This document shows positions 1 through 35,991 of a stretch of DNA of 64,000 bases, in pieces. The DNA comes from Escherichia coli (GTDB lineage: Bacteria; Pseudomonadota; Gammaproteobacteria; Enterobacterales; Enterobacteriaceae), in the NCBI RefSeq assembly GCF_003334385.1, contig NZ_QOWN01000007.1, one strand, 5' to 3'. A program made the position numbers and the translations under genes. The first letter of the stretch is position 1. Every line of letters starts with the position of its first letter. The notes under the pieces are model-generated. The model was not told where the DNA came from. It did not search any database and was given only the letters and a program-made list of their open reading frames with translations.

Positions 1-46
1 GCGCCCACACAGTGATGTTGAGGCTATTTTACCTAAATCGGCATAA
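1..46 (+). CDS. pduJ: 3' end of BMC shell protein PduJ (partial, starts upstream of window)
   Basis: Frame ending at TAA 44-46 translates ...RPHSDVEAILPKSA*, a typical PduA/PduJ shell-protein C-terminus; followed by RBS and pduK. Confidence 0.7.
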   Translation, partial: RPHSDVEAILPKSA

Positions 47-69
47 CCCCATTTGCTAAGGAGCACAGC

Positions 70-492
70 GTGAAGCAATCACTGGGATTACTTGAAGTCA
101 GTGGTCTGGCTCTCGCCATCAGTTGCGCAGACGCTATGGCAAAAGCCGCGTCCATCACGCTGGTTGGCCTTGAGAAGACCAATGGCTCAGGCTGGACGCT
201 CATCAAAATCACCGGTGACGTCGCCTCGGTTAATGCGGCGATCGCGACGGGAGCCAGTTTCGCCGGACAGCGAAATGGCCTTGTCGCACACAAAGTGATT
301 GCCCGCCCGGGAGACGGCATTCTGCCCCACACAACTGAAGCATTGACCGTGACGGTTGAAACAAGCAAAACACCAGCAACAACCGTCACCTCAGAGATTA
401 TCAGTTGTAATTTGTGTCTTGACCCGGCATGTCAGCGGCAAAAAGGTGAGCCCCGCTCACTTTGCCTGTACGCCAATAAGCGAGGGGAGTAG
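70..492 (+). CDS. pduK: Bacterial microcompartment shell protein PduK
   Basis: GTG start after AAGGAG RBS; N-terminal BMC domain MKQSLGLLEVSGLALAISCAD...; operon position. Confidence 0.85.
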   Translation: MKQSLGLLEVSGLALAISCADAMAKAASITLVGLEKTNGSGWTLIKITGDVASVNAAIATGASFAGQRNGLVAHKVIARPGDGILPHTTEALTVTVETSKTPATTVTSEIISCNLCLDPACQRQKGEPRSLCLYANKRGE

Positions 493-494
493 CA

Positions 495-1127
495 GTGGAT
501 AAACAAACCTTGCAGGAAACAGTGAACCAGATTCTGGATGAGATGCGCGAGCGCCCTATCCCACTGGGCGTTTCCAGTCGCCATATACATCTTTCAACAG
601 CGGATTATTTGCGTCTTTTTCCTGAACAACCGATTAGCGAGAAAAAGCCGTTAATGCAACCTGGCCAATACGCTGCGGAACAGGTTGTTACGCTGGAGGG
701 ACCAAAAGGCAAATTGCACAACGTTCGCTTGTTGGGGCCGCTACGCAATGCAAGTCAGGTGGAAATTTCCCGGACGGACGCCAGAACGTTAGGGATCACC
801 GCCCCGCTACGCATGTCAGGCGATCTCAGCGGCACTCCGGGGATTCGTTTGATAAGCCCATTTGCGGAACTGGAGATCACATCTGGCGTTATTGTCGCGC
901 AACGGCATATTCATATGTCTCCGCTGGATGCCCTGATTTATGGCGTTACGCATGGCGATAAAGTGGCGGTTGCCATTGAAGGTGATGAGCGACGACTGAT
1001 ATTCGAAAACGTCGCTGTTCGCGTCTCTCCGGATATGCGTCTTGAAATGCATATTGATACCGATGAGGCCAACGCCGCAGGCGCTGATAGCCCTGACGTT
1101 TTTGCCACACTGGTGTCAGTGCCATGA
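495..1127 (+). CDS. pduL: Phosphate propanoyltransferase PduL
   Basis: 210 aa, PduL/EutD-like sequence, position after pduK. Confidence 0.85.
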   Translation: MDKQTLQETVNQILDEMRERPIPLGVSSRHIHLSTADYLRLFPEQPISEKKPLMQPGQYAAEQVVTLEGPKGKLHNVRLLGPLRNASQVEISRTDARTLGITAPLRMSGDLSGTPGIRLISPFAELEITSGVIVAQRHIHMSPLDALIYGVTHGDKVAVAIEGDERRLIFENVAVRVSPDMRLEMHIDTDEANAAGADSPDVFATLVSVP

Positions 1128-1615
1128 ATAACATGCTGATGCAACGTATTGTTGACGAAGTGGTTTTTCGCCTTAAACAACGTGCGGGAAAAACACTCGT
1201 GCTGACTGTTTTTCAACTGCGAGACGCCAGCGTTCAAGAGAGCGTTCATCAGTATGCGTCATTACAAATCCGATATGTCGATCTGCCGCTGCTGCGACAA
1301 CTTGCGGAGAACGAAACGTCAGATCGAGCAGCGATTCAGATACACGAAGCGTTAGCCTGGGGATTGCACATTCAATTGTCGTTGCAGCGTCATTTCCTGA
1401 ACGCCATTGAATTGAAGACTCTCGCCCGTCTACCGCTAAGCTGGTGCGACGAACAAGGGCAACCGATCTACCTTCATCGTGATCGACTTTTAAGTTATGC
1501 CGATATCGCACAGTTAAGCTCGGGAATACTGGTTTTACAGCGGAAATGTTGTGTGACCGCACTGGCTCGTGAAGCGGCAATTACCCGAAATATTCAGTTA
1601 ATCAGGCAGGAGTAA
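1124..1615 (+). CDS. pduM: Microcompartment protein PduM
   Basis: 163 aa ORF, 4-bp overlap with pduL, operon synteny. Confidence 0.8.
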   Translation: MNNMLMQRIVDEVVFRLKQRAGKTLVLTVFQLRDASVQESVHQYASLQIRYVDLPLLRQLAENETSDRAAIQIHEALAWGLHIQLSLQRHFLNAIELKTLARLPLSWCDEQGQPIYLHRDRLLSYADIAQLSSGILVLQRKCCVTALAREAAITRNIQLIRQE

Positions 1616-1618
1616 CTT

Positions 1619-1894
1619 ATGCATCTGGCTCGAGTCACTGGCGCGGTAGTATCCACGCAAAAATCACCTTCTCTGATCGGGAAAAAACTGCTGCTGGTTC
1701 GCCGGATCAGTGCTGACGGCGAACTGCCTCTCACGCCATTAACCGGCGACGAAGTTGCCGTTGATTCAGTCGGCGCAGGCGTTGGTGAGTTGGTACTCCT
1801 CAGCAGTGGTTCCAGCGCCAGACATGTGTTTTCAGGCCCTAACGAGGCCATCGACCTGGCAGTGGTCGGCATTGTCGATACGCTTTCGCGCTAA
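1619..1894 (+). CDS. pduN: BMC vertex protein PduN (EutN/CcmL family)
   Basis: 91 aa, [15 protein letters not shown]... EutN/PduN-like. Confidence 0.85.
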
Positions 1895-1905
1895 GGAGCT
1901 AAAAG

Positions 1906-2913
1906 ATGGCAATTTATACCCGAACAGGTGATTCAGGAAGTACGTCTTTATTTACCGGACAGCGCGTCAGCAAAACTCATCTACGTGTCGAAACCTATGG
2001 CACGCTGGATGAACTGAACGCGACACTCAGTCTGTGTTATTGCGCCACCGCCATCGAAAGCCATCGCATCTTACTGGAAGCCATTCAACAACAGATATTT
2101 TGGTTTAGCGCCGAACTCGCCAGTGAAAGTGAACAGCCGTCAGCGCAACAGCGTTACATCGGTACGGAAGAAATTGCTGCGCTGGAAAACGCGATCGATA
2201 GCGCAATGAACGCCGTCCCCCCAGTTCACAGCTTCATTCTGCCTGGTCGATGTGAAGCCGCGAGCCGCATGCATTTCGCCCGCACAGTGGCTCGACGGGC
2301 TGAAAGACGTCTGGTTGAACTGACAACGGAAACCACCGTCCGGAATGTTTTGCTGCACTATATCAACCGACTTTCCGATTGTCTGTATGCCCTCGCCCGC
2401 GTGGAAGACAACGTTGCTCATCAAAACCTGATGATTCAGGAAATCACAAAACGTTATCACGAAGCCAACCACATACCAGCATTGAAGGAACGCACAATGC
2501 CGCTCACTTTTCAGGATCTTCACCAGCTCATTCGTAGTGCGGCAATGCGCGCGGATGAACTGCATATTCCCGTTGTCATCAGCATTGTTGATGCCAACGG
2601 AACAGAAAGTGTTACCTGGCGGATGCCTGATGCCCTGTTGGTCAGCAGTGAACTGGCACCGAAAAAAGCCTGGACCGCCGTGGCGATGAAAACGGCAACC
2701 CACAAACTTGCTGATACCGTGCAACCCGGCGCGCCGCTTTACGGGCTCGAAAGCCATATGCAAGGCAAAGTCGTCACTTTTGGTGGCGGCTTCCCCCTCT
2801 GGCGTGACGGAAAATTGCTTGGCGGGCTTGGCATCAGCGGCGGTAGCGTTGAACAAGACATGGATATTGCTCAAAGCGCAATGGCGGCAATTAACGTGGG
2901 AGTAAACCAATGA
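1906..2913 (+). CDS. pduO: ATP:cob(I)alamin adenosyltransferase PduO (N-terminal PduO-type ACA domain + C-terminal DUF336)
   Basis: 335 aa; N-terminus MAIYTRTGDSGSTSLF typical of PduO-type adenosyltransferases. Confidence 0.9.
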   Translation: MAIYTRTGDSGSTSLFTGQRVSKTHLRVETYGTLDELNATLSLCYCATAIESHRILLEAIQQQIFWFSAELASESEQPSAQQRYIGTEEIAALENAIDSAMNAVPPVHSFILPGRCEAASRMHFARTVARRAERRLVELTTETTVRNVLLHYINRLSDCLYALARVEDNVAHQNLMIQEITKRYHEANHIPALKERTMPLTFQDLHQLIRSAAMRADELHIPVVISIVDANGTESVTWRMPDALLVSSELAPKKAWTAVAMKTATHKLADTVQPGAPLYGLESHMQGKVVTFGGGFPLWRDGKLLGGLGISGGSVEQDMDIAQSAMAAINVGVNQ

Positions 2914-4295
2914 ATAACTCTGAATTAGAAACACTGATCCGCAATATTCTGCGCGAGCAACTTGTCCCCGCTACACCACGAACGCTAAGAAACGCTATTT
3001 TCCAGACTGTTGATGAAGCGGTCTGCGCAGCACACCAGGCCTTTTTACGCTTTCAACAGTGCCCGCTTAAAACCCGTAGCGCCATTATCAGTGCTATTCG
3101 CGAAGAATTAATGCCCCGCCTTACCGAACTGGCAGAAGAAAGCGCCAAAGAAACGGGGATGGGAAATAAAGAAGATAAGTACCTAAAAAACAAAGCGGCA
3201 CTCGATAATACGCCAGGAGTTGAAGATTTAACCACCACTGCACTAACCGGTGATGGTGGCATGGTTTTGTTTGAATACTCCCCGTTTGGGGTTATTGGCT
3301 CGGTCACGCCAAGCACCAATCCCACGGAAACCATCATTAACAACAGCATCAGCATGCTGGCAGCAGGTAATAGCGTCTACTTCAGTCCACACCCGGGAGC
3401 CAAATACGTTTCGTTAAAACTGATTACCACAATCGAAGACATCGCGTTTCGCTGTAGTGGCATTCATAACCTGATCGTTACCGTATCTGAACCGACCTTT
3501 GCTGCTACCGAACAGATGATGGCGCACCCTAAAATCAGCGTTCTGGCGATTACCGGCGGTCCGGGGATCGTCGCCATGGGAATGAAAAGTGGCAAGAAAG
3601 TGATTGGTGCCGGAGCGGGTAACCCTCCGTGTATCGTCGATGAAACGGCGGATATTGTGAAAGCCGCCGAAGATATCATCAACGGCGCTTCATTTGATTA
3701 CAACCTGCCGTGTATCGCTGAAAAAAGCCTGATTGTCGTAGCATCAGTGGCAGAGTATTTAATTCAGCAGATGCAAAGTTTTGGCGCGCTTCTTCTTAAC
3801 TATGAGCAAACGGAGAAATTGCGTGCAATTTGCCTGCCAGACGGTAGCGCCAACAAAAAACTGGTTGGGAAAAGCCCATCAGCCTTGCTGGAAGCGGCAG
3901 GCCTCCCTTTGCCCGCAAAAGCGCCGCGCCTACTGATTGCTGTTGTCGACGCCAATGATAGTTGGGTTACTTGTGAACAACTGATGCCAATGCTGCCCAT
4001 TGTGAAGGTCAACGATTTTGATAGCGCTCTCACCCTGGCGCTGAAAGTGGAAGACGGCTTGCACCACACGGCAATTATGCACTCGCAGAACGTCTCACGG
4101 CTCAACCTTGCCGCACGCGTTATGCAAACCTCAATCTTTGTCAAAAACGGCCCCTCCTGGGCGGGTATTGGCGTCGGCGGCGAAGGCTTTACGACCTTTA
4201 CCATTGCAACACCGACCGGAGAAGGGACAACGTCAGCCCGGACTTTTGCCCGCTCACGACGCTGCGTGTTAACCAGCGGCTTTTCAATTCGCTAG
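2910..4295 (+). CDS. pduP: CoA-acylating propionaldehyde dehydrogenase PduP
   Basis: 461 aa aldehyde dehydrogenase family with N-terminal encapsulation-like peptide; synteny. Confidence 0.9.
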   Translation: MNNSELETLIRNILREQLVPATPRTLRNAIFQTVDEAVCAAHQAFLRFQQCPLKTRSAIISAIREELMPRLTELAEESAKETGMGNKEDKYLKNKAALDNTPGVEDLTTTALTGDGGMVLFEYSPFGVIGSVTPSTNPTETIINNSISMLAAGNSVYFSPHPGAKYVSLKLITTIEDIAFRCSGIHNLIVTVSEPTFAATEQMMAHPKISVLAITGGPGIVAMGMKSGKKVIGAGAGNPPCIVDETADIVKAAEDIINGASFDYNLPCIAEKSLIVVASVAEYLIQQMQSFGALLLNYEQTEKLRAICLPDGSANKKLVGKSPSALLEAAGLPLPAKAPRLLIAVVDANDSWVTCEQLMPMLPIVKVNDFDSALTLALKVEDGLHHTAIMHSQNVSRLNLAARVMQTSIFVKNGPSWAGIGVGGEGFTTFTIATPTGEGTTSARTFARSRRCVLTSGFSIR

Positions 4296-4305
4296 AGAAA
4301 CGGAA

Positions 4306-5418
4306 ATGAATACTTTTTCACTGCAGACGCGTTTATACAGCGGACCGGGAAGTCTCAAGGTACTTAGCCGTTTCTCTCATAAACACATCTGGATTATTTG
4401 CGACGTCTTTCTGGCACGCTCACCACTCATTAACACGTTGCATCAGGCGCTGCCCGACAGTAATCGTCTTAGTATTTTTAGCGAAATAACGCCCGACCCA
4501 ACTATCCAGACCGTGGTGAAAGGCATTGCGCAAATGCAGACTTTACGCCCGGATGTGGTTATCGGTTTTGGCGGCGGTTCTGCCCTGGACGCCGCAAAAG
4601 CGATTGTCTGGTTCGGTCGCCAGTGTGGCATTGAAATTGAAACCTGCGTAGCCATTCCTACCACCAGCGGTACCGGTTCCGAAGTGACCAGTGCTTGTGT
4701 CATCAGCGATCCTGAGAAAGGGATTAAATATCCCCTTTTCGATAATGCACTTTATCCGGATATTGCGATCCTTGATCCATCTCTGGTCGTCAGCGTGCCA
4801 CCGGCGATAACGGCCAATACCGGGATGGATGTTTTAACCCATGCGCTTGAAGCTTATGTTTCTCCTCGCGCCAGCGACTTCACGGATGCACTGGTCGAAA
4901 AAGCCGTGCAAATTGTTTTTCAATACCTGCCCACTGCAGTGAAAAAAGGCGATTGTCTTGCCTCCCGTGGCAAAATGCATAATTCATCGACGCTTGCAGG
5001 AATGGCCTTTAGCCAGGCCGGACTCGGTTTAAACCATGCAATTGCTCATCAACTCGGCGGACAGTTTCATCTGCCGCACGGACTGGCGAATGCGCTCCTG
5101 CTCACGGCAGTTATCCGCTTTAATGCTGGCGATCCGCGCGCTGCCAAACGCTATGCCCGGCTGGCGAAAACGTGCCATTTATGCCCGGACAACGCCAATG
5201 ATACCGCCAGCCTGAATGCACTTATTCAACATATTGAGCAGCTTAAAACAACCTGTACGCTGCCGACTCTTGCCAATGCGCTGAAAGAAAAAAAAGCAGA
5301 ATGGTCAATACGCATACCAGATATGGTTCAGGCGGCGCTGGCGGATGCAACGTTGCGTACCAACCCGCGTGCGGCTGATGCCTCCGCGATTGCAGAACTG
5401 CTCGAGGAGTTGTTATGA
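4306..5418 (+). CDS. pduQ: Iron-containing alcohol dehydrogenase (1-propanol dehydrogenase) PduQ
   Basis: 370 aa Fe-ADH family (GGGSALDAAK motif). Confidence 0.9.
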   Translation: MNTFSLQTRLYSGPGSLKVLSRFSHKHIWIICDVFLARSPLINTLHQALPDSNRLSIFSEITPDPTIQTVVKGIAQMQTLRPDVVIGFGGGSALDAAKAIVWFGRQCGIEIETCVAIPTTSGTGSEVTSACVISDPEKGIKYPLFDNALYPDIAILDPSLVVSVPPAITANTGMDVLTHALEAYVSPRASDFTDALVEKAVQIVFQYLPTAVKKGDCLASRGKMHNSSTLAGMAFSQAGLGLNHAIAHQLGGQFHLPHGLANALLLTAVIRFNAGDPRAAKRYARLAKTCHLCPDNANDTASLNALIQHIEQLKTTCTLPTLANALKEKKAEWSIRIPDMVQAALADATLRTNPRAADASAIAELLEELL

Positions 5419-6758
5419 ACGTCGAGTTAACCTCCTGCGACGACCAGATCATCCGCGAGCGAGTACAAGCAGCAGGTGTCGTGGGTGCTGGCGGCGCAGG
5501 TTTTCCAACCCATATTAAGCTACAAGCGCGTGTTGACACTTTCCTGGTGAATGCGGCGGAATGCGAACCCATGTTGAAAGTGGATCAACAGTTAATGGCG
5601 CAGCAAGCCAGTCGCCTGCTTCGCGGTGTTCACTATGCGATGAAAGCCACCGGGGCCAGTAGCGGAATCATCGCGCTGAAAGAGAAATATCAACTGGCAA
5701 TAAACGCACTCACACCACTGTTACCACCGGATATCCGCCTGCATATTTTGCCCGATGTTTACCCCGCAGGAGACGAAGTGCTGACCATCTGGATGGCAAC
5801 TGGTCGCCGCGTTCCACCCGCTGCATTACCCGTTAGCGTCGGTGTGGTGGTCAATAATGTTCAAACCGTACTTAATATTGCCAGAGCCGTCGAGCAACAG
5901 TATCCAGTGACGCACCGCACACTCACCGTTAATGGTGCAGTGGCGAAACCAATAACGGTAACCGTCCCCATCGGCATGTCTTTACGTGAAGTCCTGGCGC
6001 TGGCGGGCGGCGCAACAGTGGATGCTCCTGGTTTTATCAATGGCGGGCCGATGATGGGAAGTTTGATCACATCGCTCGACACACCAGTCAGCAAAACCAC
6101 TGGCGGCTTGCTGGTTTTACCCAACTCTCATTCACTGATCCAACGTCGAATGCAGAATGACCGCAGCGTACTTGCCGTCGCGAAAACTGTTTGTGAGCAA
6201 TGCCGCTTGTGTACCGATCTCTGTCCACGTCATTTAATCGGCCACGAACTGGCTCCCCATTTACTAGTACGTGCGGTTAACTACCAACAGCTCGCTACGC
6301 CGCAACTGTTACTGACGGCGCTCACCTGTTCAGAGTGCAACGTCTGCGCCAGTGTCGCCTGTCCGGTAGGAATTTCACCAATGCGCATAAACCGCCTGCT
6401 TAAGCAGGAATTACGCGCAAAAAATCTCCGTTACGAAGGTACCTTAAATCCTGCAGATCCCATGGCAAATTATCGACTGATTCCCGTAAAACAGCTGGTA
6501 ACCAGACTTGGCTTAACCCCGTGGTATCAGGATGCGCCATTGTCTGAACAGGTGCCTCAGCCCGAAAAAGTGACGTTATTGTTACGCCAGCACATCGGTG
6601 CCAGCGCAATTGCGTGTGTACAAAAAGGCGATCGCGTCGTTCATGGGCAATGTGTAGGTCAAATTCCACACGGCACATTAGGTGCCCCCATTCATGCCAG
6701 TATTGATGGCATGGTCAGCGATGTGACAGAAAACGCGATTACGCTTGTGAGAGGTTAA
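5415..6758 (+). CDS. pduS: Cobalamin reductase PduS (RnfC/NuoF-like, Fe-S)
   Basis: 447 aa, [12 protein letters not shown] motif and two Cys clusters; synteny. Confidence 0.9.
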
Positions 6759-6760
6759 CC

Positions 6761-7315
6761 ATGTCGAAAGCGGTAGGTATTTTAGAACTTAGCAGTATCG
6801 CGAAAGGGATGGAAACCGGCGACGCCATGCTGAAAAGCGCCAACGTTGAGTTACTGGTCAGCAAAACGCTATGCCCCGGAAAATTTCTGCTGATGCTCGG
6901 TGGCGATGTGGGCGCGGTGCAACAGGCCATCAACAGCGGAGCGTCCCTTGCTGGTGAAATGCTGGTCGACAGTCTTGTCCTGCCGAATATTCATCCCAGC
7001 CTCCTTTCTGCAATCAGCGGACTTAACCATGTTGAACAGCACCGGGCTGTCGGCGTAGTCGAAACCTGGAGTGTCGCCGCCTGCATTGACGCTGCCGATT
7101 GTGCTGTCAAAGCTGCGAATGTCATTCTCGTTCGCGTACATATGGCTTTTGGCATTGGCGGTAAATGCTACATGGTGGTTGCTGGCGATATTTCAGATGT
7201 TAATAACGCGGTCTCTGTCGCCAGCGAGCGTGCGGGGGAAAAAGGTTTGTTGGTCTATCGGTCGGTGATTGCCCGTCCACATGAAGCCATGTGGCGTCAG
7301 ATGGTGGAGGGATAA
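6761..7315 (+). CDS. pduT: BMC shell protein PduT (tandem BMC domains)
   Basis: 184 aa with two BMC-like halves; synteny. Confidence 0.85.
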
Positions 7316-7665
7316 TGACAACTCAGCACACAACTGAACGGATGATTCAGGAATATGTCCCTGGTAAGCAGGTCACGCTGGCACATGTCATCGCCAATCC
7401 AGGGAAGGATCTGTTTAAGAAATTGGGTTTACCAGACACCATTTCCGCTATTGGCATTCTGACGATTACCCCCAGCGAAGCATCTATCATCGCATGCGAT
7501 ATCGCCACAAAATCAGGCGCTGTAGAGATCGGTTTTCTTGATCGTTTTACCGGTGCCGTAGTGCTGACTGGTGATGTTTCTGCGATCGAATATGCACTTA
7601 GCCAGGTTACCCGTACGCTGGGTGAAATGATGCGCTTTACCGCCTGCCCCATTACGCGAACCTGA
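7315..7665 (+). CDS. pduU: BMC shell protein PduU (EutS/PduU family)
   Basis: 116 aa from ATG overlapping pduT stop (TAATG); ORF-track start at 7291 is probably an upstream extension. Confidence 0.8.
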
Positions 7666-7669
7666 CGTT

Positions 7670-8113
7670 ATGCAACGTATGATGCTCATCGGCCCCAGCC
7701 AGTGCGGAAAAACGTCACTCACGCAATGTCTGCGTAGCGAAAATATTCATTATCAGAAAACGCAGGCAATCGTCTGGTCCCCGACCACCATTGATACACC
7801 AGGCGAATACCTCGAAAACCGCAGCCTCTACAGTGCACTGTTGGTCAGTGCCTGCGAAGCAGACATTATCGCGCTGGTGCTTAATGCGGACGCACCGTGG
7901 TCACCTTTTTCGCCAGGCTTTACCTTGTCAATGAATCGCCCGGTCATTGGAGTAGTAACCAAAGCAGATTTAGCCAGCATGGAACAAATATCTTTGGTGA
8001 AATGTTGGTTACGGGAAGCTGGAGCGCACAACGTGTTAGTAACCAGTGCGGTTAATAACAATGGAGTGGCAGAACTTTTAGCCTTGCTGCATACAGAAGA
8101 AGGCTGTCGCTAA
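7670..8113 (+). CDS. pduV: Microcompartment-associated GTPase PduV (EutP/PduV family)
   Basis: 147 aa with P-loop [10 protein letters not shown]. Confidence 0.85.
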
Positions 8114-8171
8114 TTTCGACAGGTTATCAGATGGGAATGATGACGGTGATACACAGAAAAGAATCAATGAA

Positions 8172-8200
8172 CATTGAGGGTTGCCAGGCAACCCTCAATG
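8172..8200. terminator. Inverted repeat between convergent pduV and yeeX (possible bidirectional terminator)
   Basis: cattgagggttgcc-a-ggcaaccctcaatg perfect 14-bp stem; weak U-tract. Confidence 0.4.
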
Positions 8201-8213
8201 AATAAAACAGGAA

Positions 8214-8543
8214 TTACTTCGCTTCGCCGTTTTTCATTTCGCCCATAGCTTTCAGCTTTTTGGAGATATCACGGCGTTCTTTGGAGAGCTCGGCATTTTT
8301 GATGATGTAATCGTCAACACGATCTTCATAGTCACCCTTCATGCTGGCGATGATGCCCTGGATTGCTTCAACGCTCATCCCCGGCTTGATGTAATCGCTC
8401 AGGTTGTCCAGCAGCAGGACGCGCTTCTGGTTGTCACGGATCTTTTTCTCAACGTCCTGAATTTCACGTTGCAGTTTGTTCTTACGACGGAACAGACGAA
8501 CAAATTCCAGTACGTCCTGGAATGAAGGCTTGGTAGTTTCCAT
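8214..8543 (-). CDS. yeeX: UPF0265 family protein YeeX
   Basis: 109 aa from [14 protein letters not shown]...; ORF-track 131 aa version is an upstream extension. Confidence 0.85.
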
Positions 8544-8714
8544 TTTTATACCCCTGATAATGTGAGAGTCGGATTCGTTTAAGCAACCGCTATTCGTTAG
8601 GGCCAACATTACTCATAGCTGCCGCAGATGACAATGCTTTTATCCCTTTTCACTATCATACCCTTTATCCTTGCTGAATCGAAGCAGCAGCAAGATGATT
8701 CTGAAGTTCAGGAA

Positions 8715-9773
8715 TTATTTGCGCAAGGCCCGGCAAATCAGATTCGATAGCAACTCAAGCTGATGTGCCGTTTCCATGTTCAGCCACACATAACCATAGA
8801 TTGGTGTTTCCACAACCTTCAGGTCATGGTGGTTATTGAGCAACTGACGCAGCTCTTCCACAGCATCGTTCAATTTTTCCGTATTGGCAAAAACCGGCTG
8901 CGGATTACCTTCGTACAGCGCATGAACAAGGCTCAGCAGTATTTGCTGCATCATGTGCTGGGTATCACGAAGTTTTTGCGCGTTCAATAACACGAAATGG
9001 CTGGGGCGCGTGGCCCAGTACGCATTGATTTGCAACTCCAGCATACAAACCAGATTGCGGTTAATGGTCTGGATACCTTCATATATCGATTTTGGAATAC
9101 GGGTTTCTTTGCTGGCGGGCGCAATCAGCCCACGCATTTTCACGGCATCGGTCAGGAGTTTTTGTAGATGGCTTTCCAGACGTGGGCGTTCGAGTAAGTT
9201 CGGTGAGAATGCTGATTGATAGACCCGATTATACTCGGTCAGACTTTTCGCCAGTTGAATGCGCCAGTGGATGAACGCCCGTTGTGGCCAGATACCGGTA
9301 AACAACATTGCCAGTAAAGAGCCGAGGATCACATCGCCGCTTCGCCATAACGCCGTATCAATTTCACCTGTCGGGGAACCCACAACAATTGCCAGCGTCA
9401 CCCCAATCAATAAACCTTGATACGGTTTCTTGCCCAGCGCCAGCCAACCGCAAAGGAACATGGCCGCCGCGCACCAGACTAACATCAGCGGTAACGAGAT
9501 TAACTCCAGTTGCAGAGCGATAAGACCTAATATCGAACCCAACACCGTACCGCCAATACGTTCGAAGGCACGAGGGACAACGTTACCCCAGAACGAGATT
9601 GGCCCCATAATCACCACCATGGTGACCAGCGGCCAGGTGCTTTCAGGGATAGTAAACAGGCGGATAATGAGAAAAGTGAGCAGGAATGCCAGCGCGACCC
9701 GAGTACCATGCACAATGCGGTAATGGCGGTATACCCGGATTTCAAACGGGCTTAATGACTTATCGGCAAGCAC
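8715..9773 (-). CDS. yeeA: Inner membrane protein YeeA (FUSC-like)
   Basis: 352 aa multi-TM protein, synteny with sbmC. Confidence 0.85.
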   Translation of the reverse strand: MLADKSLSPFEIRVYRHYRIVHGTRVALAFLLTFLIIRLFTIPESTWPLVTMVVIMGPISFWGNVVPRAFERIGGTVLGSILGLIALQLELISLPLMLVWCAAAMFLCGWLALGKKPYQGLLIGVTLAIVVGSPTGEIDTALWRSGDVILGSLLAMLFTGIWPQRAFIHWRIQLAKSLTEYNRVYQSAFSPNLLERPRLESHLQKLLTDAVKMRGLIAPASKETRIPKSIYEGIQTINRNLVCMLELQINAYWATRPSHFVLLNAQKLRDTQHMMQQILLSLVHALYEGNPQPVFANTEKLNDAVEELRQLLNNHHDLKVVETPIYGYVWLNMETAHQLELLSNLICRALRK

Positions 9774-9971
9774 GCAGAAACTCCGTAATGAAAATTAAAA
9801 GCGCTCATAACACATCTGTCGGCCAGAAGGCGCGCCTCTGAATTATCCGACGGACAAACCGGGAACAGTGTAATTTCCCGGCAGGAGCGAAAAATTTGAA
9901 AGGCGCATCTTACTCTTTTCGCTTTCAAAAAAAAGAGTGGTCATCGCGTTAACACACCGCCCTGAGATGAA

Positions 9972-10445
9972 TTAGTGATGTTTTGGCTGCACCGCAACAT
10001 ACATTTCGATATCCCAGTACCCATCTTCCGCGCCATTGTTCAAATAAACCTCGAAGCAGGGCTTTGGTAACATTTCATAAGCACTGTCCTGCAAGAGGCT
10101 ATTAAAGAACTGATACCAGGGTTTAGCAAAATCATCACCGACTACACGAGCCACCGCAACCGCATACTGACCACCTGAAATTTCTGTCAGAATGACGCCC
10201 TCACTGTTTTCGGGGAGCGTAAAGTTATTCGGTACCGTCACGACGGTGTCGCAGCGTAATTTTTCGGCGGGTGTTTCATCTGGATTGTCGTAATAGACAG
10301 CAACCCACTCCTTCGGCACAATATTTTGGCTATCTACCCACATCATCAACTGCTCAAAACCTTTCTTTACCGTCTGTTCCCACGGGCCAACGAGATGGAA
10401 ACCTGCAACGGTACGTTTATCTTCCTGCTTAATCTCGTAGTTCAT
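9972..10445 (-). CDS. sbmC: DNA gyrase inhibitor SbmC (GyrI)
   Basis: 157 aa; LexA box immediately upstream. Confidence 0.9.
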
Positions 10446-10459
10446 GACGCCTCCATTAA

Positions 10460-10479
10460 TACTGTTTTTATATACAGTA
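10460..10479. promoter_or_regulatory. LexA (SOS) box in sbmC promoter
   Basis: TACTGTTTTTATATACAGTA matches CTGT-N8-ACAG consensus, ~15 bp upstream of sbmC start. Confidence 0.8.
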
Positions 10480-10563
10480 TAGTTGCAATATTAAAACCAC
10501 AAGGAATGAGTGTTGATTATGCGAGCAGACTCGCACTCCTGCCAGTCTGCTGCAAAAGAAAGG

Positions 10564-11736
10564 TCAGGCCTTATGGTGGAAATAATCACTCAGGCGAGAA
10601 AACATGCTGCCTTCCCCGACAGATTCCAGGGTAACCAGCGGCCAGTGCGCCACCTGTTTATCACGGTCGTAAAGTTCAATTTCCCCTACCCGCTGATGGG
10701 CGCTAATTGGCGCGGTGAGTTCTTTACCATCAAGGGTATATTTGGCTTTGATATGTGGAATTTCGGCTTTCGGTAGCACCATCCAGAACTCTTGTTCCGT
10801 TCCCAGGGCGATATTTTCTTTATCGCCATACCAGATGCGTTCCGTACCGACCTTTTTCCCACGGTGCAAAATTTGCACCGTAGTAAAGTTTTGTTGCCCC
10901 CAACGCAGTAATTTTCTTGCCTCTTCCTCACGACCTTTTGCGCTGTCAGCACCCATTACCACTGCAATGAGACGACGCTGCCCATCTACAGCCGAAGCAA
11001 TGAGATTAAACCCGGCACCAGAAGTATGACCCGTTTTCAGGCCGTCAACATTCATGGTTTTATCCCACAATAACCCGTTACGGTTTTGCTGGGTGATACC
11101 GTTCCAGGTGAGGCTTTTCTCACTGTACATATGATAAAACTCGGGCTCGCCGTGGATGATAGCACGAGAAAGCACAGCTAAATCATAAGCCGAGCTATGC
11201 TGACCTGGCGCATCCAGGCCATGCACTGTTTCAAAATGCGTATCCTTGAGATGCAGCTTCTCGGCATAGTTGTTCATCATTTCAACAAACTGCCGTTGCC
11301 CACCGGCAATATAGTCAGCCAGAGCAACACAAGCGTCATTTCCGGAATCAACAATTAAACCACGGCTTAAATCACGTACCGATACGCGATCGCCCTCTTT
11401 CAAAAACATCAGTGAAGAACCGACAAACACCGGATTATCTTTCGCCCACGCATCGCGCCCCACGGTGACAATATCGTCTGGCGTAATGCGATGACTATCG
11501 ATAGCGCGATCCACGACATAACCCGTCATCAGCTTTGTCAGGCTGGCGGGATTGCGCTGTTGATGCTCATTACCCGCGGTGAGGATCTGTCCGGTGGTGT
11601 AATCCATCAGTACCCAGGACCCGGCATGAATCTCTGGAGGCTGAGGTGAAAAAGGAATGTTTTCCGCCGCAAAACCAGACGATAAGTTAAAAACGAACAA
11701 AGAAGCAGCAATAATAAGACGGCGTTTCAACAGCAA
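10564..11736 (-). CDS. dacD: D-alanyl-D-alanine carboxypeptidase DacD (PBP6b)
   Basis: 390 aa with signal peptide and SxxK (ASLTKLMT) motif. Confidence 0.9.
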   Translation of the reverse strand: MLLKRRLIIAASLFVFNLSSGFAAENIPFSPQPPEIHAGSWVLMDYTTGQILTAGNEHQQRNPASLTKLMTGYVVDRAIDSHRITPDDIVTVGRDAWAKDNPVFVGSSLMFLKEGDRVSVRDLSRGLIVDSGNDACVALADYIAGGQRQFVEMMNNYAEKLHLKDTHFETVHGLDAPGQHSSAYDLAVLSRAIIHGEPEFYHMYSEKSLTWNGITQQNRNGLLWDKTMNVDGLKTGHTSGAGFNLIASAVDGQRRLIAVVMGADSAKGREEEARKLLRWGQQNFTTVQILHRGKKVGTERIWYGDKENIALGTEQEFWMVLPKAEIPHIKAKYTLDGKELTAPISAHQRVGEIELYDRDKQVAHWPLVTLESVGEGSMFSRLSDYFHHKA

Positions 11737-11938
11737 ACCCTCAGGAGTTTCAAATAGCTGTTCTTTTTACGGAAATACTTATGAACTGGCTGGAATAAAG
11801 TGCAAGAAAATGTGACTACCCTCTCATTTTTATCTGACATGATCTGTTGCCACTCGCTGCCAAATTGTGGCGCTAAAGCTGATTAGCACGGTGATATTTG
11901 ATACTCTGGCAGACAGCAGAAATAACGGATTTAACCTA

Positions 11939-13366
11939 ATGATGAATGACGGTAAGCAACAATCTACCTTTTTGTTTCACGATTACGAAACCTTTGGCAC
12001 GCACCCCGCGTTAGATCGCCCTGCACAGTTCGCAGCCATTCGCACCGATAGCGAATTCAATGTCATCGGCGAACCCGAAGTCTTTTACTGCAAGCCCGCT
12101 GATGACTATTTACCCCAGCCTGGAGCAGTATTAATTACCGGTATTACCCCGCAGGAAGCACGGGCGAAAGGAGAAAACGAAGCCGCGTTTGCCGCCCGTA
12201 TTCACTCGCTTTTTACCGTACCGAAGACCTGTATTCTGGGCTACAACAATGTGCGTTTCGACGACGAAGTCACACGCAACGTTTTTTATCGTAATTTCTA
12301 CGATCCTTACGCCTGGAGCTGGCAGCATGATAACTCGCGCTGGGATTTACTGGATGTTATGCGTGCCTGTTATGCCCTGCGCCCGGAAGGAATAAACTGG
12401 CCTGAAAATGATGACGGTCTACCGAGCTTTCGCCTTGAGCATTTAACCAAAGCGAATGGTATTGAACATAGCAACGCCCACGATGCGATGGCTGATGTGT
12501 ACGCCACTATTGCGATGGCAAAGCTGGTAAAAACGCGTCAGCCACGCCTGTTTGATTATCTCTTTACCCATCGTAATAAACACAAACTGATGGCGTTGAT
12601 TGATGTTCCGCAGATGAAACCCCTGGTGCACGTTTCCGGAATGTTTGGGGCATGGCGCGGCAACACCAGCTGGGTGGCACCGCTGGCGTGGCATCCTGAA
12701 AATCGCAATGCCGTAATTATGGTGGATTTGGCAGGAGACATTTCGCCATTACTGGAACTGGATAGCGACACATTGCGCGAGCGTTTATATACCGCAAAAA
12801 CCGATCTTGGCGATAACGCCGCCGTTCCGGTTAAGCTGGTGCACATCAATAAATGTCCGGTGCTGGCCCAGGCGAATACGCTACGCCCGGAAGATGCCGA
12901 CCGACTGGGAATTAATCGTCAGCATTGCCTCGATAACCTGAAAATTCTGCGTGAAAATCCGCAAGTGCGCGAAAAAGTGGTGGCGATATTCGCGGAAGCC
13001 GAACCGTTTACGCCTTCAGATAACGTGGATGCACAGCTTTATAACGGCTTTTTCAGTGACGCCGATCGTGCAGCAATGAAAATTGTGCTGGAAACCGAGC
13101 CGCGTAATTTACCGGCACTGGATATCACTTTTGTCGATAAACGGATTGAAAAGCTGTTGTTCAATTATCGGGCGCGCAACTTCCCGGGGACGCTGGATTA
13201 TGCCGAGCAGCAACGCTGGCTGGAGCACCGCCGCCAGGTATTCACACCCGAGTTTTTACAAGGCTATGCAGAAGAGATTCAGATGCTGGCGCAGCAGTAT
13301 GCCGACGATAAAGAAAAAGTGGCGCTGTTAAAAGCGCTTTGGCAGTACGCGGAAGAGATTGTCTAG
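11939..13366 (+). CDS. sbcB: Exodeoxyribonuclease I SbcB
   Basis: 475 aa from MMNDGKQQSTFLFHDYETFG; ORF-track start at 11867 is an extension. Confidence 0.9.
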   Translation: MMNDGKQQSTFLFHDYETFGTHPALDRPAQFAAIRTDSEFNVIGEPEVFYCKPADDYLPQPGAVLITGITPQEARAKGENEAAFAARIHSLFTVPKTCILGYNNVRFDDEVTRNVFYRNFYDPYAWSWQHDNSRWDLLDVMRACYALRPEGINWPENDDGLPSFRLEHLTKANGIEHSNAHDAMADVYATIAMAKLVKTRQPRLFDYLFTHRNKHKLMALIDVPQMKPLVHVSGMFGAWRGNTSWVAPLAWHPENRNAVIMVDLAGDISPLLELDSDTLRERLYTAKTDLGDNAAVPVKLVHINKCPVLAQANTLRPEDADRLGINRQHCLDNLKILRENPQVREKVVAIFAEAEPFTPSDNVDAQLYNGFFSDADRAAMKIVLETEPRNLPALDITFVDKRIEKLLFNYRARNFPGTLDYAEQQRWLEHRRQVFTPEFLQGYAEEIQMLAQQYADDKEKVALLKALWQYAEEIV

Positions 13367-27908: not shown

Positions 27909-28913
27909 ATGAAATTTCTGGTTACGGGAGCTGCTGGCTTTATCGGTTTCTATGTAAGTAAACAGCTTCTTGCAGCTGGTCATCAGGTTGTAGGCATTGA
28001 CAACTTAAATGATTATTACGATGTCAACCTCAAACAAGCACGACTTGATTTACTCAAGCACGACAATTTCAGTTTTTATAAAATTGACCTGGCCGATCGC
28101 GAGATAATGGCGGCACTGTTTGCAGACGAGCGGTTCGATCGCGTAATAAACCTCGCTGCGCAAGCCGGTGTACGTTACTCCCTTGAAAATCCCAATGCAT
28201 ATGCAGATGCAAACCTGATTGGATTCCTGAACATACTGGAAGGATGTCGCCATAATAATGTTCGGCATCTACTTTACGCTTCCTCCAGTTCTGTTTATGG
28301 CATGAACCGCAAGATGCCTTTCTCTACAGATGACTCTGTAGATCATCCTGTTTCGCTGTATGCAGCAACTAAAAAGGCGAATGAACTCATGGCCCATACG
28401 TATTCTCATTTGTATGGCTTACCGACCACAGGGCTGCGTTTCTTTACGGTTTATGGTCCATGGGGACGTCCAGATATGGCATTATTTAAATTCACTAAAG
28501 CCATGCTGGAAGGTAAAAGCATTGATGTTTACAACTTCGGCAAAATGAAGCGTGACTTTACTTATATTGATGATATTGCCGAAGCTATTATTCGCTTACA
28601 GGATGTTATTCCAGAAAAAGATCCACAGTGGGCTGTAGAAACAGGCTCGCCAGCAACAAGTTCAGCACCATATCGTGTCTATAACATTGGTAATAGTTCG
28701 CCTGTGGAGTTAATGGATTATATCAATGCCTTAGAAGAGGCTCTGGGTATTGAAGCCAACAAGAATATGATGCCTCTCCAACCCGGTGATGTACTGGAAA
28801 CCAGTGCTGATACAAAAGCACTGTATGACGTAATAGGATTCAAACCTGAAACGTCAGTTAAAGAGGGGGTAAAGAACTTTGTAGAATGGTATCGTAACTT
28901 CTATAAAGTTTGA
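27909..28913 (+). CDS. NAD-dependent UDP-glucuronate 4-epimerase-like protein (SDR family)
   Basis: 334 aa; GAAGFIGF Rossmann motif, YAATK catalytic motif, [15 protein letters not shown] region resembling UDP-GlcA 4-epimerases. Confidence 0.75.
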
Positions 28914-29036: not shown

Positions 29037-29495
29037 TTACTTACGGCCCGTAAACGGGCTGCCCGGATAGGGAATCGATAACTGCTCTCCCATTTTATCC
29101 TCTTCAAGCTGGTGCTTTATGTAATCCTGTATCTTCGCCGTGTTCTTACCCACCGTATCGACGTAGTACCCTCTGCACCAGAACTCCCTGTTCCTGTATT
29201 TGAATTTCAAATCACCAAACTGCTCGTAAAGCATCAGACTGCTTTTCTCTTTCAGATATCCCATAAAGCCGGATACGCTCATTTTGGGCGGGATCTCCAC
29301 AAGCATATGGATATGATCTGCACAGCATTCAGCTTCAAGAATCCGTACGCTTTTCCACTCACACAGCTTTCTCAAAATACAGCCTATTGCTCTACGCTTC
29401 TCTCTGTAGAACACTTGTCTTCGGTATTTTGGCGCAAAAACTATGTGATATTTACAGTTCCATCGGGTGTGCGCTAAGCTCTTTTCGTTCCCCAT
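29037..29495 (-). CDS. tnpA: IS200-type transposase TnpA (HUH Y1 transposase)
   Basis: 152 aa from MGNEKSLAHTRWNCKYHIVFAPKYRR; contains HxH (HIHMLV) motif. Confidence 0.85.
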   Translation of the reverse strand: MGNEKSLAHTRWNCKYHIVFAPKYRRQVFYREKRRAIGCILRKLCEWKSVRILEAECCADHIHMLVEIPPKMSVSGFMGYLKEKSSLMLYEQFGDLKFKYRNREFWCRGYYVDTVGKNTAKIQDYIKHQLEEDKMGEQLSIPYPGSPFTGRK

Positions 29496-29650
29496 TGGGA
29501 CCCCCTTTTGATTTCTTGTTTGACACTTGCAGTTGCCAGACCGCAAGGTGTTTTAACAAATCAAAAGGGGTTATAATAACTGGCTCAAAGCTGAAAGCTT
29601 TCCGGAACCCCCAGCCTAGCTGGGGGTTTTCTTAGTATGAAACAAAATAA

Positions 29651-32472: not shown

Positions 32473-32576
32473 TGTTTACTCCTGTCAGGATTGCCGCTTT
32501 GATGGTGGTATTTAAAATGATGTAAACATACACCTTTATTATCATAAATAATGAACCAATAAAAGTGTTGCCTCGA

Positions 32577-33587
32577 TTAATCATAACCCTTTGGATTTTT
32601 GAGTTGCCAAAGCCAAGCATGCTTCAACATGTCCTCAAGATTATATTTTGCGCTCCAACTTAATTCAGCTCTAATCAATGATGGATCGGCCCAGCATTCA
32701 GGCACATCACCCTTTCGTCGTTTGGAGATACGATAAGGAACAGAGACATTATTAACTCGCTCAAATGTATTTACTATCTCTAATACAGATGAACCAACAC
32801 CCGTACCTAAATTATAAATATGTAGACCATTTGTTTTTTTATTATTCAATGCAGCTATATGTCCTTCAGCTAAATCGCAAACATGAATAAAATCTCTGAT
32901 TCCAGTTCCATCAGGCGTACTATAATCATCGCCATAAATGGTCAAATACGGCAAATCCCCAATTGCGACTTTAGTCACGTAAGGTACTAGATTATTAGGA
33001 ACTCCTAGAGGATCCTCTCCAATCTCTCCTGAAGGGTGGGCACCAATAGGGTTAAAATATCTAAGAATAGTTATATTCCAATCGCCATCAGATTGAATTA
33101 AATCCATCAAAATTTGTTCGACCATATGCTTACTGGTCCCGTAAGGATTTGTAGTTCCTCCAGTTACACATTTTTCAGTTAATGGCATATTATCTGGCAG
33201 TCCATATACAGTCGCAGAAGAACTAAATATAATATCCTTTATCCCATTTATACACATTAACTGCAATAAGTTTAACGTTCCAACTACATTGTTGTGATAA
33301 TATGTTAAAGGTGCCCTACTAGATTCTGAAACTGATTTCAATCCAGCAAAATGAATAACCTTATTAATATCATGTTTAGAAAAAATTTCTTGCAGAGATT
33401 CAGCATTACAAATATCATAATCATAAAATACAAATTCTCCACCGCTCAGCGCTTTTATTCTGTCAATCACACTTGCTTTAGAGTTTGAAAAATTATCAAC
33501 AACTATGACGTTATATTTTAACTCAATCAATCGAATTAAAGTATGAGAACCTATATATCCTAAGCCACCAGTAACTAATATGTTCAT
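32577..33587 (-). CDS. gne: UDP-sugar 4-epimerase (GalE/Gne family)
   Basis: 336 aa, TGGxGYIG and YGTSK motifs; AT-rich; position at gnd-proximal end of O-antigen cluster. Confidence 0.8.
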   Translation of the reverse strand: MNILVTGGLGYIGSHTLIRLIELKYNVIVVDNFSNSKASVIDRIKALSGGEFVFYDYDICNAESLQEIFSKHDINKVIHFAGLKSVSESSRAPLTYYHNNVVGTLNLLQLMCINGIKDIIFSSSATVYGLPDNMPLTEKCVTGGTTNPYGTSKHMVEQILMDLIQSDGDWNITILRYFNPIGAHPSGEIGEDPLGVPNNLVPYVTKVAIGDLPYLTIYGDDYSTPDGTGIRDFIHVCDLAEGHIAALNNKKTNGLHIYNLGTGVGSSVLEIVNTFERVNNVSVPYRISKRRKGDVPECWADPSLIRAELSWSAKYNLEDMLKHAWLWQLKNPKGYD

Positions 33588-33605
33588 GTTGTTTCCTTTA
33601 CAATG

Positions 33606-34727
33606 TCAAATGACATTAAATAATTTTCTTTTAAAAAGAATACATAACCAAGTAAAGGTAAAAAAGTAAGGAATTGCAGTTGTTCCGAGTGACATTGATG
33701 CTATCAAAAATGGAAGCACGATGACAATAGCATCCTCTTTGAGGTAAATGCACATAATGCATAATAATACTAAAAATAAAAATAATCCAATCATGCCAGT
33801 TTCAATTAAGAAAGTCAGAAACAGATTATGTGCCCCCATACCAATAACATCGACTGCATTTCCAAGACCAACCCCCAGCAATATCACCTCAACATTATTA
33901 TTCTTAATGTATTCGAGTGAATACCTAATTAAATCAAATTTACTTTCAAAGCTTATATCATCCGTGAATTTTTTAAATACAAACCATGAAAGAACAATAA
34001 GTAATACTGGCATAAGCATATATGAGAAAGCTTTGATGCGCTTATTTTTCATTAGAACAGAAAGCACAAAAAGCAATATCATTGCTATGATAGCAGCCCT
34101 AGAGAAAGTTAAAACAACCCCAACAAATAAAGCACAAAAAACAAGAAAGTATCTTACGCGCAATAAACCAACAATTTTAATATCTCTGAAGAAATAAAGA
34201 AAACAGGATAATATAAAAACAGCTTCTAGACCAACAAAGTTGGAATCGGCATACATAAGTGAGTTTACTTTATATATTTGAAAGCCGATACCCAGTTCTT
34301 CTAACTTATCAACATTTGCAAGATACGGATGTTGAATTCTCCAAAAACCATCAAGAATGAAAACGAATGAATAAAACAAGAAAACATTCAATAAATTTCT
34401 TTTTGTAATGCTTCGTCCCTTATAATAAAAATCCACCAACATTGGAGAAAGCAGCACCATACACAGATTAATTACAAGTGAAAAATGCGAGTTTATAAAA
34501 AGGAAAGTTGACAATAGTGATATAATAAGACTTATGAGTGTGAAAAAAGAAACATCCCATTTCCTGCAACTAACATTTGTAAGAAAAACCAAAATCATTG
34601 AAAGAATAAAAATAAAATAAACAGGACTAATCGCAGTTATTTGGGTTATATATAAACCACAAGATATCAACCATAAAAGGCCGATAAATGAGATTTTTTT
34701 ATCAGCATTATTATTTTCAAGTTTCAT
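33606..34727 (-). CDS. wzy: Putative O-antigen polymerase Wzy
   Basis: 373 aa, highly hydrophobic, about 10 predicted TM segments, very AT-rich, no conserved enzymatic motif. Confidence 0.6.
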   Translation of the reverse strand: MKLENNNADKKISFIGLLWLISCGLYITQITAISPVYFIFILSMILVFLTNVSCRKWDVSFFTLISLIISLLSTFLFINSHFSLVINLCMVLLSPMLVDFYYKGRSITKRNLLNVFLFYSFVFILDGFWRIQHPYLANVDKLEELGIGFQIYKVNSLMYADSNFVGLEAVFILSCFLYFFRDIKIVGLLRVRYFLVFCALFVGVVLTFSRAAIIAMILLFVLSVLMKNKRIKAFSYMLMPVLLIVLSWFVFKKFTDDISFESKFDLIRYSLEYIKNNNVEVILLGVGLGNAVDVIGMGAHNLFLTFLIETGMIGLFLFLVLLCIMCIYLKEDAIVIVLPFLIASMSLGTTAIPYFFTFTWLCILFKRKLFNVI

Positions 34728-35782
34728 TTTTCACCAATAAGTTTCATATATATATTAAATGTCTTTTCTGAAATCACATCAAACGAATATTTTTCGTTGA
34801 CCATATCTATTCCAGTTATATTAACACCCATATATTTATTTATATCAAACTTATCTTTATTATTGCAAATAAATCCACAAGAACCGTTATTTATCATTTC
34901 ATAAGCAAGCCCTCCCATTTCCCCAATTATCGGATAGACACCATTAGCAAGTGCCTCCAACACAACATTTGGCATACCTTCTCGCTCCGATAAATGTATT
35001 AGGAATTGAGAACGACACATTATTTCATTAATTTTTTGATGTTCAATTTTACCTAAAAAATGGATATTATTACTACTAAACTGCTTACAGTTCAGCACAT
35101 AACCTGCTTCAAAACCATCAAGACTTTCATTATCGGGGCCAATTATCAAAAGTTTATATCCTTGGTTTTCAAAATTATCTTTATAAAATTTTATTCCTTC
35201 TATTATTTTTTTTCTTGGTATAATTGCAGATATTATTAAAACTATTTTTTCCTTAATCTGTTCATTCCCGTACATACAATCAGGGGCACTGACGCCATTT
35301 GGAATAGTAACCAACCTAGTGATGGGAATGTATTTACTATTAATTTCATATATTTGTTTCGATAACGTATTGTTTATCGAAATAAACCTCAACAACCAGT
35401 GCTTAAGAGACCTCAAAGAACCACGATTTATCAATGTATGGAAATCATCACAATCCAATAAAGTTGATTTCCAATAGACAGGTATTTTGAAAATAGCACA
35501 AATACCAAGAAGACCAAAATCAGCCCCATGGAAATGAACAACATCCGGTTTAATAGATTTACACAAAAGAAAGAACTGCCAAAATCTTTTATATGATGAA
35601 GATATTTCCATTACACTGAATTGAACATCCTCACTTAATTTAGAAATACGATTCTGGCATCTAGTCACAAAAATTTGTTCGATATTGGGGGCATGTTTTT
35701 TTAAAGCCTTTGCTAAATTTTTTGCTTGAAGAGATGCGCCGCTAAAGCCATAATAATTATGTACTATATGGATCACTTTCAT
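34724..35782 (-). CDS. Glycosyltransferase, GT-B fold (GT4-like)
   Basis: 352 aa with C-terminal EREGMPNVVLEALANG motif. Confidence 0.75.
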   Translation of the reverse strand: MKVIHIVHNYYGFSGASLQAKNLAKALKKHAPNIEQIFVTRCQNRISKLSEDVQFSVMEISSSYKRFWQFFLLCKSIKPDVVHFHGADFGLLGICAIFKIPVYWKSTLLDCDDFHTLINRGSLRSLKHWLLRFISINNTLSKQIYEINSKYIPITRLVTIPNGVSAPDCMYGNEQIKEKIVLIISAIIPRKKIIEGIKFYKDNFENQGYKLLIIGPDNESLDGFEAGYVLNCKQFSSNNIHFLGKIEHQKINEIMCRSQFLIHLSEREGMPNVVLEALANGVYPIIGEMGGLAYEMINNGSCGFICNNKDKFDINKYMGVNITGIDMVNEKYSFDVISEKTFNIYMKLIGEK

Positions 35783-35991
35783 TTATATATTTTTCTCTTT
35801 GAAAACCTAATAGAAAACATTTTAAATTTATTTACTATTGTGCTGTCTATAATAAAATTTTTGCTATCACACAACACACAAAAAAGGTAAAACCATTGAA
35901 ATAACGTTAATAATATTTTATTACCGTCAGTTTTTTGGTCTTCAATACACCTTTACCTCAAGTGAATTCACCTTACACAAAGCAAGCGTAC

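Follow-up and report, generated by a model that had tools for sequence, protein, structure and literature searches.

The 64,000-nt stretch of Escherichia coli contig NZ_QOWN01000007.1 analysed here (assembly GCF_003334385.1; hereafter the window) opens inside a pdu microcompartment operon that ends at pduV. Neither pduW (propionate kinase) nor pduX (L-threonine kinase) follows, and the last gene is separated by a 100-bp spacer (positions 8114–8213) from the convergent gene yeeX, now named tmaR. With a probability of roughly 0.88, the window shows the usual pdu locus of the Escherichia chromosome, from which about 2.15 kb with pduW and pduX was lost in an ancestor, and the remaining operon should work. 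The loss would fall in the ancestor of the genus, or at least in that of E. coli, E. albertii and E. whittamii; it would have extended from approximately the first codons of pduW to approximately the stop codon of pduX and its terminator hairpin, and would have left pduV as the last gene, 100 bp from yeeX. The initial annotation offered natural absence and deletion as alternatives, and each applies on its own time scale: the arrangement is normal within Escherichia and does not reflect a deletion specific to this strain, but it is a derived loss when set against the next genera.

The junction of pduV with yeeX, lacking pduW and pduX, is a fixed feature of the species and not a trait of the strain. 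The operon occurs in 648 of 5426 complete E. coli genomes, and 641 of these 648 show the same continuation from pduV into yeeX; a 326-bp probe of the junction (positions 7935–8260) is covered over at least 80% of its length in 5364 of the 5426. Nearly all pdu-negative genomes match the window from about position 7931 (a minority from about 7815) and so carry the 3′ part of pduV, about 97% identical to that of the window, together with the same 100-bp spacer and tmaR. Because E. coli without the operon, K-12 included, keep the pduV end, the spacer and yeeX, a point absent from the initial annotation, the junction is fixed species-wide. In K-12-type genomes the pduV stump at this junction is yoeF, annotated as “EutP/PduV family microcompartment system protein”, and it adjoins an insertion sequence (IS) scrap and the CP4-44 prophage genes agn43, yeeR, yeeS, yeeT, cbeA, cbtA and yeeW, in keeping with the statement in the initial annotation that K-12 has prophage genes here. 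In a second pdu-negative class there is no prophage, and cobU and a cbi scrap precede the pduV stump and tmaR. Most E. coli lineages would have lost the remaining operon later on, retaining the 3′ fragment of pduV (yoeF) at the same junction. This layout is already known: it can be read from hundreds of annotated genomes in public databases, and published tables of E. coli pdu genes imply it; the gene table of the adherent-invasive E. coli (AIEC) strain LF82, in which the operon is induced, ends at pduV (PMC6379400). When the literature was searched for yoeF or for papers saying outright that pduW and pduX are missing from E. coli, only indirect statements emerged.

Some further observations concern the stump itself. 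Its two main left breakpoints lie at about 7931, beside the IS scrap and CP4-44, and at about 7815, where pduV is joined directly to the cbi scrap that lies next to cobU. The 3′ part of pduV beside tmaR is kept not only by K-12 but also by BL21, O157:H7 and ATCC 25922. A contig assigned to a “Planctomycetota” metagenome-assembled genome (MAG; L028, JADFIX010000334.1) holds a pduV stump, spacer and tmaR of the E. coli type, about 94% identical to the window; this is probably Escherichia contamination.

Similar comparisons can be extended beyond the species, using one genome per species scanned with PduV peptides and with flanking genes located by tblastn. In E. albertii, E. whittamii and two GTDB “E. 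coli” representatives, pduV is followed directly by yeeX, while Escherichia sp. MOD1-EC7003 has a pduV stump at this site; among these Escherichia the spacer aligns with a mean column identity of 84%. The order pduU-pduV-pduW-pduX is present in 20 of 20 Citrobacter-type loci (many species of Citrobacter, Pseudocitrobacter, Pluralibacter and related MAGs), and yeeX-yeeA follows pduX in 18 of them, the two others being a sequence that ends inside pduX (L017) and a locus with no yeeX match (L020). In C. braakii, pduW encodes 404 aa (NF009063, 837 bits) from a start 16 nt ahead of the pduV stop, and pduX encodes a GHMP-kinase-like protein of 288 aa and ends about 40 bp from the yeeX stop. The Salmonella operon encodes 22 proteins, among them PduW and PduX (PMC7181861). 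The comparison proposed in the initial annotation thus separates two groups: pdu-positive E. coli share the junction, and Citrobacter keeps pduW-pduX. The pdu operons of close relatives, including those of E. albertii and E. whittamii, likewise have pduV as their last gene, which marks this as the normal organisation, an outcome that the initial annotation had set against deletion.

At the DNA level the window is about 74–76% identical to Citrobacter across pdu and about 76–79% identical across yeeA, sbmC and dacD, and gene order is shared through yeeX-yeeA, with sbmC-dacD also matched at the DNA level in several loci. Since the identity is similar in the operon and its flanks and the gene order is kept, the block looks vertically inherited since the genera split, and, given vertical inheritance, the most parsimonious course of events is that the stem lineage of Escherichia lost about 2.15 kb. 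The similarity of PduV to its Citrobacter counterparts extends to residue 144 of 147, and in a short alignment the site of the Citrobacter pduW ATG overlaps a conserved Cys codon close to the pduV end, which places the left edge of the loss at approximately the first pduW codons. In the spacer hairpin of E. albertii, the left arm (CAGTGAGGAT) is identical to that of the hairpin in two loci of the C. amalonaticus group, where the TGA stop codon of pduX lies within the arm.

Several candidate remnants of the lost genes were considered in the spacer and set aside. In one C. amalonaticus locus (L015), the 3′ end of pduX gave a match of 25 nt, with 21 of 25 positions identical, which was entertained as a deletion scar, but 2 of 200 shuffles reached its score and control windows elsewhere in pduW-pduX equalled it. 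Local alignment of the spacer with the region between the ends of pduV and yeeX gave nothing in the other five Citrobacter loci, and an nhmmer profile of the pduX 3′ end and following spacer from 19 loci had no match in five Escherichia spacers. When scores were pooled, the alignment with the final 100 nt of pduX outscored 199 of 200 shuffles, but control windows elsewhere in pduW-pduX did equally well or better. One in-frame reading of the spacer, TQKRINEH followed by a stop, resembles the stretch TQKKLTIHW of PduX, but in other E. coli the frame is interrupted by a 1-nt indel; likewise, a 24-codon spacer open reading frame (ORF; ATG at 8131) was rejected as a gene, its frame not being conserved across Escherichia.

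In a different history, Escherichia would have acquired the operon by horizontal transfer, with pduV as its last gene already in the donor, and nothing would have been deleted in situ. Such a transfer would agree with the lack of a detectable deletion scar in the spacer, with a study of sequence type 372 (ST372) in which E. coli lineages are inferred to have gained and lost pdu repeatedly (PMC9997745), and with the foreign, IS-flanked pdu island of E. coli strain 48, which has a different end (pduW present, pduX absent). It is difficult to reconcile with the synteny shared with Citrobacter on the right side (yeeX-yeeA, and sbmC-dacD by DNA match), or with a pdu identity, about 75%, that is similar to that of the flanking core genes. 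In addition, the hairpin on the yeeX side resembles the pduX-yeeX terminator of Citrobacter, even as to where the pduX stop codon lies, and strains without pdu still carry an allelic fragment of pduV. Homologous recombination of the native locus accounts better for the gain and loss of pdu within the species, and acquisition of an operon already truncated at its source appears improbable.

It is still less probable, and very much so, that pduW and pduX were relocated in the genome and not lost, a possibility for which no supporting evidence was found. When the 5426 complete E. coli genomes were searched by blastn (word size 11) with 2.2 kb of Citrobacter pduW-pduX, only seven gave matches. Six of these are 63-bp matches to tdcD, and the seventh, in E. 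coli strain 48 (deer), is a full-length pduW of 75% identity that sits in a second, foreign pdu island ending pduV-pduW, without pduX. At the DNA level, the genome-wide search advised in the initial annotation returned no pduX and a single foreign pduW. Moreover, tblastn with Citrobacter PduW and PduX found no match in the 64-kb window, and the only PduW homologue in the pdu-positive AIEC strain ZvL2 is TdcD, at 44% identity (PMC7360682). The strain 48 island (L030, NZ_CP166879.1, 5244379–5260146) is complete, shows 60–80% identity and occurs in 1 of the 5426 genomes; it adjoins btuB and is flanked by scraps of IS66, IS21 and IS4 and by a cdiA locus. As for the idea that the sequenced isolate itself lost pduW and pduX recently, which only the comparison with Salmonella and Citrobacter would suggest (pduV being followed there by pduW and pduX; PMC7181861), it is already refuted by the population data, that is, by the same junction throughout E. 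coli and by its homologous spacer in E. albertii and E. whittamii.

The known roles of the two missing proteins suggest how an ancestral loss might have been borne. PduW converts propionyl-phosphate to propionate with formation of ATP (PMC7181861), whereas PduX phosphorylates L-threonine and so begins the route to the aminopropanol-phosphate linker, which CbiB joins to adenosylcobyric acid (PMC7181861; PMC6249242), the aminopropanol phosphate being the joint product of PduX and CobD (PMC6249242). In Salmonella LT2 both proteins are cytosolic and are not components of the microcompartment (PMC7181861). In the Escherichia operon, PduCDE, PduP and PduL would make propionyl-phosphate, which housekeeping AckA or TdcD would turn into propionate and ATP; alternatively, propionyl-CoA would enter the methylcitrate cycle. 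Palacios et al. are said to have found, in 2003, that PduW is redundant with AckA and TdcD; the proposal in the initial annotation that ackA or tdcD may stand in for pduW is thus in line with published work.

PduX would serve only the de novo synthesis of cobamides, a pathway that also seems to have been lost in Escherichia, to judge from a cbi scrap next to cobUST. In the chromosome of E. coli ETEC1734, which is 99.9% identical to positions 1–12000 of the window, the locus comprises cobT-cobS-cobU, an ORF of 145 aa, a B12 riboswitch and pocR-pduF-pduA through pduV, and the cbi genes are absent. The 145-aa ORF (L001 8225–8662, “hypothetical protein”) matches only the N-terminal third of CbiG, a cobalt-precorrin 5A hydrolase (E = 1.6e-19, 70 bits against a profile cut-off of 546), and looks like the last scrap of a lost cbi operon in pdu-positive E. 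coli. Without corrin ring synthesis or CbiB, PduX would have no substrate pathway to serve, and the loss of the de novo pathway implies that B12 is imported or salvaged. Thus, B12 would be taken up as such, or cobinamide salvaged through CobUST, with adenosylation by PduO, and what is left of the operon, namely PduCDE, GH, P, Q, L, O, S and the shell, is intact and predicted to work on either source. In terms of these established functions, the loss of pduW and pduX looks tolerable.

Several points weigh against an ancestral loss that left a working operon. Within the spacer, examined over its full 100 bp, the approximately 58 bp that separate the hairpin from the stop codon of pduV hold no statistically secure remnant of pduW or pduX, so that deletion in situ rests on parsimony and synteny. 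The PduV peptide scan matched no Salmonella or Klebsiella locus, and the pduW-pduX content of those genera is taken from the literature. The absence of pduX from the 5426 genomes holds at the DNA level only, with a floor of about 65–70% identity below which a divergent threonine kinase of the GHMP family would be missed. Likewise, the absence of cbi genes refers to one close relative and to genome annotations.

The pduV-yeeX spacer, which is conserved across Escherichia species, contains a hairpin at positions 8172–8200 with a perfect 13-bp stem and a 3-nt loop (dG -21.6 kcal/mol, z -4.5); none of 200 shuffles folds as well. On the minus strand, that of tmaR, it is followed by UUCAUUGAUUCUUUUC, a U-rich tail, and on the plus strand, that of pdu, by an A-rich tail. 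As the U-rich tail is found on the minus strand only, the hairpin is probably the terminator of tmaR, and on the plus strand it is no textbook terminator for pdu. A consensus terminator scan called it on neither strand, and Rfam, applied at a permissive E-value to positions 7000–10500, returned no RNA family. Its pairing is preserved by two-sided changes in other species (T-A to G-C in E. albertii, G-C to A-T in E. whittamii), and the E. albertii stem also has two mismatches.

Conceivably, transcription of the induced pdu operon could read antisense into tmaR and so couple propanediol use to the control of sugar uptake, or the loss of PduW could alter acyl-phosphate signalling, but either effect must be regarded as very improbable. 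If the former were true, removal of pduW-pduX would have brought the end of a long inducible operon to within 100 bp of tmaR, a regulator of the polar clustering of enzyme I of the phosphotransferase system (PTS), and a hairpin with no U-tract on the pdu strand would be the sole barrier between them; in the case of signalling, propionyl-phosphate would be redirected to AckA or TdcD. A hairpin of the same kind also follows pduX in Citrobacter, where it matches the Escherichia hairpin in position and, in part, in sequence.

The operon itself occupies positions 1–8113 on the plus strand as an unbroken run of ORFs in canonical pdu order, with boundaries that overlap or are tightly spaced. Gene identities are based on NCBIfam profile matches and on the RefSeq annotation of ETEC1734, which lists the same genes as pduJ to pduV, followed by tmaR, yeeA, sbmC, dacD and sbcB. 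Matches for pduL, pduM, pduO, pduP, pduS, pduU and pduV are above or near the curated cut-offs, whereas NCBIfam identifies pduK, pduN and pduT as BMC or EutN-type shell proteins and pduQ as an iron alcohol dehydrogenase. The description in the initial annotation, namely the pduJ tail and K-L-M-N-O-P-Q-S-T-U-V in canonical order, a hairpin-bearing non-coding gap of about 100 bp before convergent yeeX, and no pduW or pduX after pduV, is upheld on all three counts, the gap being exactly 100 bp.

The shell and vertex proteins are represented by the 3′ end of pduJ (1–46), whose translation ends in RPHSDVEAILPKSA before the stop and which corresponds to pduJ at L001 17771–18046 in ETEC1734; by pduK (70–492), a BMC-domain protein; by pduN (1619–1894), an EutN/CcmL vertex protein; by pduT (6761–7315), a tandem BMC protein; and by pduU (7315–7665), an EutS-type protein (NF012012, 134 bits). 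The shell genes pduA and pduB are present in the close relative. The start of pduK is placed at a GTG at position 70, whereas RefSeq relatives annotate it from the equivalent of position 43, which is ATA here and no standard start codon. To judge from the N-terminus of Salmonella PduK, MKQSLGLLEV, the GTG is probably the true start.

The aldehyde-processing core is intact in the window and consists of pduP, a CoA-acylating propionaldehyde dehydrogenase (2910–4295; NF011927, 713 bits), pduQ, a 1-propanol dehydrogenase with matches to the iron alcohol dehydrogenase family (4306–5418), and pduL, a phosphate propanoyltransferase (495–1127; NF011652, 256 bits against a cut-off of 209). Cobalamin recycling is represented by pduO, a two-domain adenosyltransferase (1906–2913; TIGR00636, 161 bits), and pduS, an RnfC-like 4Fe-4S cobalamin reductase (5415–6758; TIGR01945, 256 bits). 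There is also pduM (1124–1615; NF011957, 246 bits, above its cut-off), and the terminal gene of the operon in Escherichia, pduV (7670–8113; TIGR02528, 182 bits against a cut-off of 138), encodes a GTPase-like protein of the EutP/PduV type. The diol dehydratase genes pduCDE and the reactivase genes pduGH lie outside the window and are intact directly upstream in ETEC1734. Beyond the spacer, on the minus strand, are yeeX (8214–8543), encoding a DUF496 protein and PTS regulator (NF003844, 198 bits; NF040881, 188 bits), and yeeA (8715–9773), a FUSC-family gene that belongs to the right flank shared with Citrobacter, as identified by ORF, annotation and tblastn comparison.

Other differences from relatives are found further along the window. 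The segment 13364–14885, which carries tsuB/yeeD and tsuA/yeeE between sbcB and plaP, has no blastn match over about 300 bp in the loci of E. albertii, E. whittamii and E. coli E69, and in the ORF lists of E. albertii and E. whittamii plaP directly follows sbcB. Between wzzB and ugd are an extra gene for an NAD-dependent sugar epimerase/dehydratase (27909–28913, plus strand) and an IS200/IS605-family transposase gene (29037–29546, minus strand), both of which are missing at this spot in the otherwise collinear ETEC1734. The O-antigen cluster (32500–40060) includes a galE-like epimerase and several glycosyltransferases and is distinct from the O120 cluster of the genome closest in pdu; two of its ORFs have no NCBIfam match and may be wzy and wzx.

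The relevance of the pduV ending is limited mainly to correct annotation: the Salmonella pduA-X operon is unsuitable as a template for E. coli, in which the operon ends at pduV. For metabolic models of pdu-positive E. coli (AIEC, animal commensals), this would mean routing propionyl-phosphate through AckA or TdcD and supplying external B12 or cobinamide. The joint absence of pduX and cbi would represent an accessory gene lost along with the pathway that it serves.

Overall, the locus can be set beside three known arrangements. Its organisation and junction are identical to those of pdu-positive E. coli (AIEC LF82, ETEC1734), E. albertii and E. whittamii, with an identity of 95–99.9% within E. 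coli and 88–91% to the other Escherichia species. It shares with the yoeF locus of K-12 the 3′ part of pduV, the spacer and tmaR, but there pocR, pduF and pduA to the 5′ part of pduV have been replaced by CP4-44 and the IS scrap, whereas the operon of the window is intact. With the pduABCDEGHJKLMNOPQSTUVWX operon of Salmonella LT2 and Citrobacter it has in common the order from pduJ to pduV (from pduA in the close relatives of the window), the divergent pocR-pduF and a site beside yeeX-yeeA-sbmC-dacD and cobUST, and its proteins remain similar to those of Citrobacter (PduV 74–78% identical, PduU about 90%). Unlike that operon, the Escherichia version has no cbi operon next to pocR and no terminal pduW and pduX, and in place of the approximately 2.15 kb that these two genes occupy in Citrobacter, Escherichia has about 58 bp before the shared hairpin.

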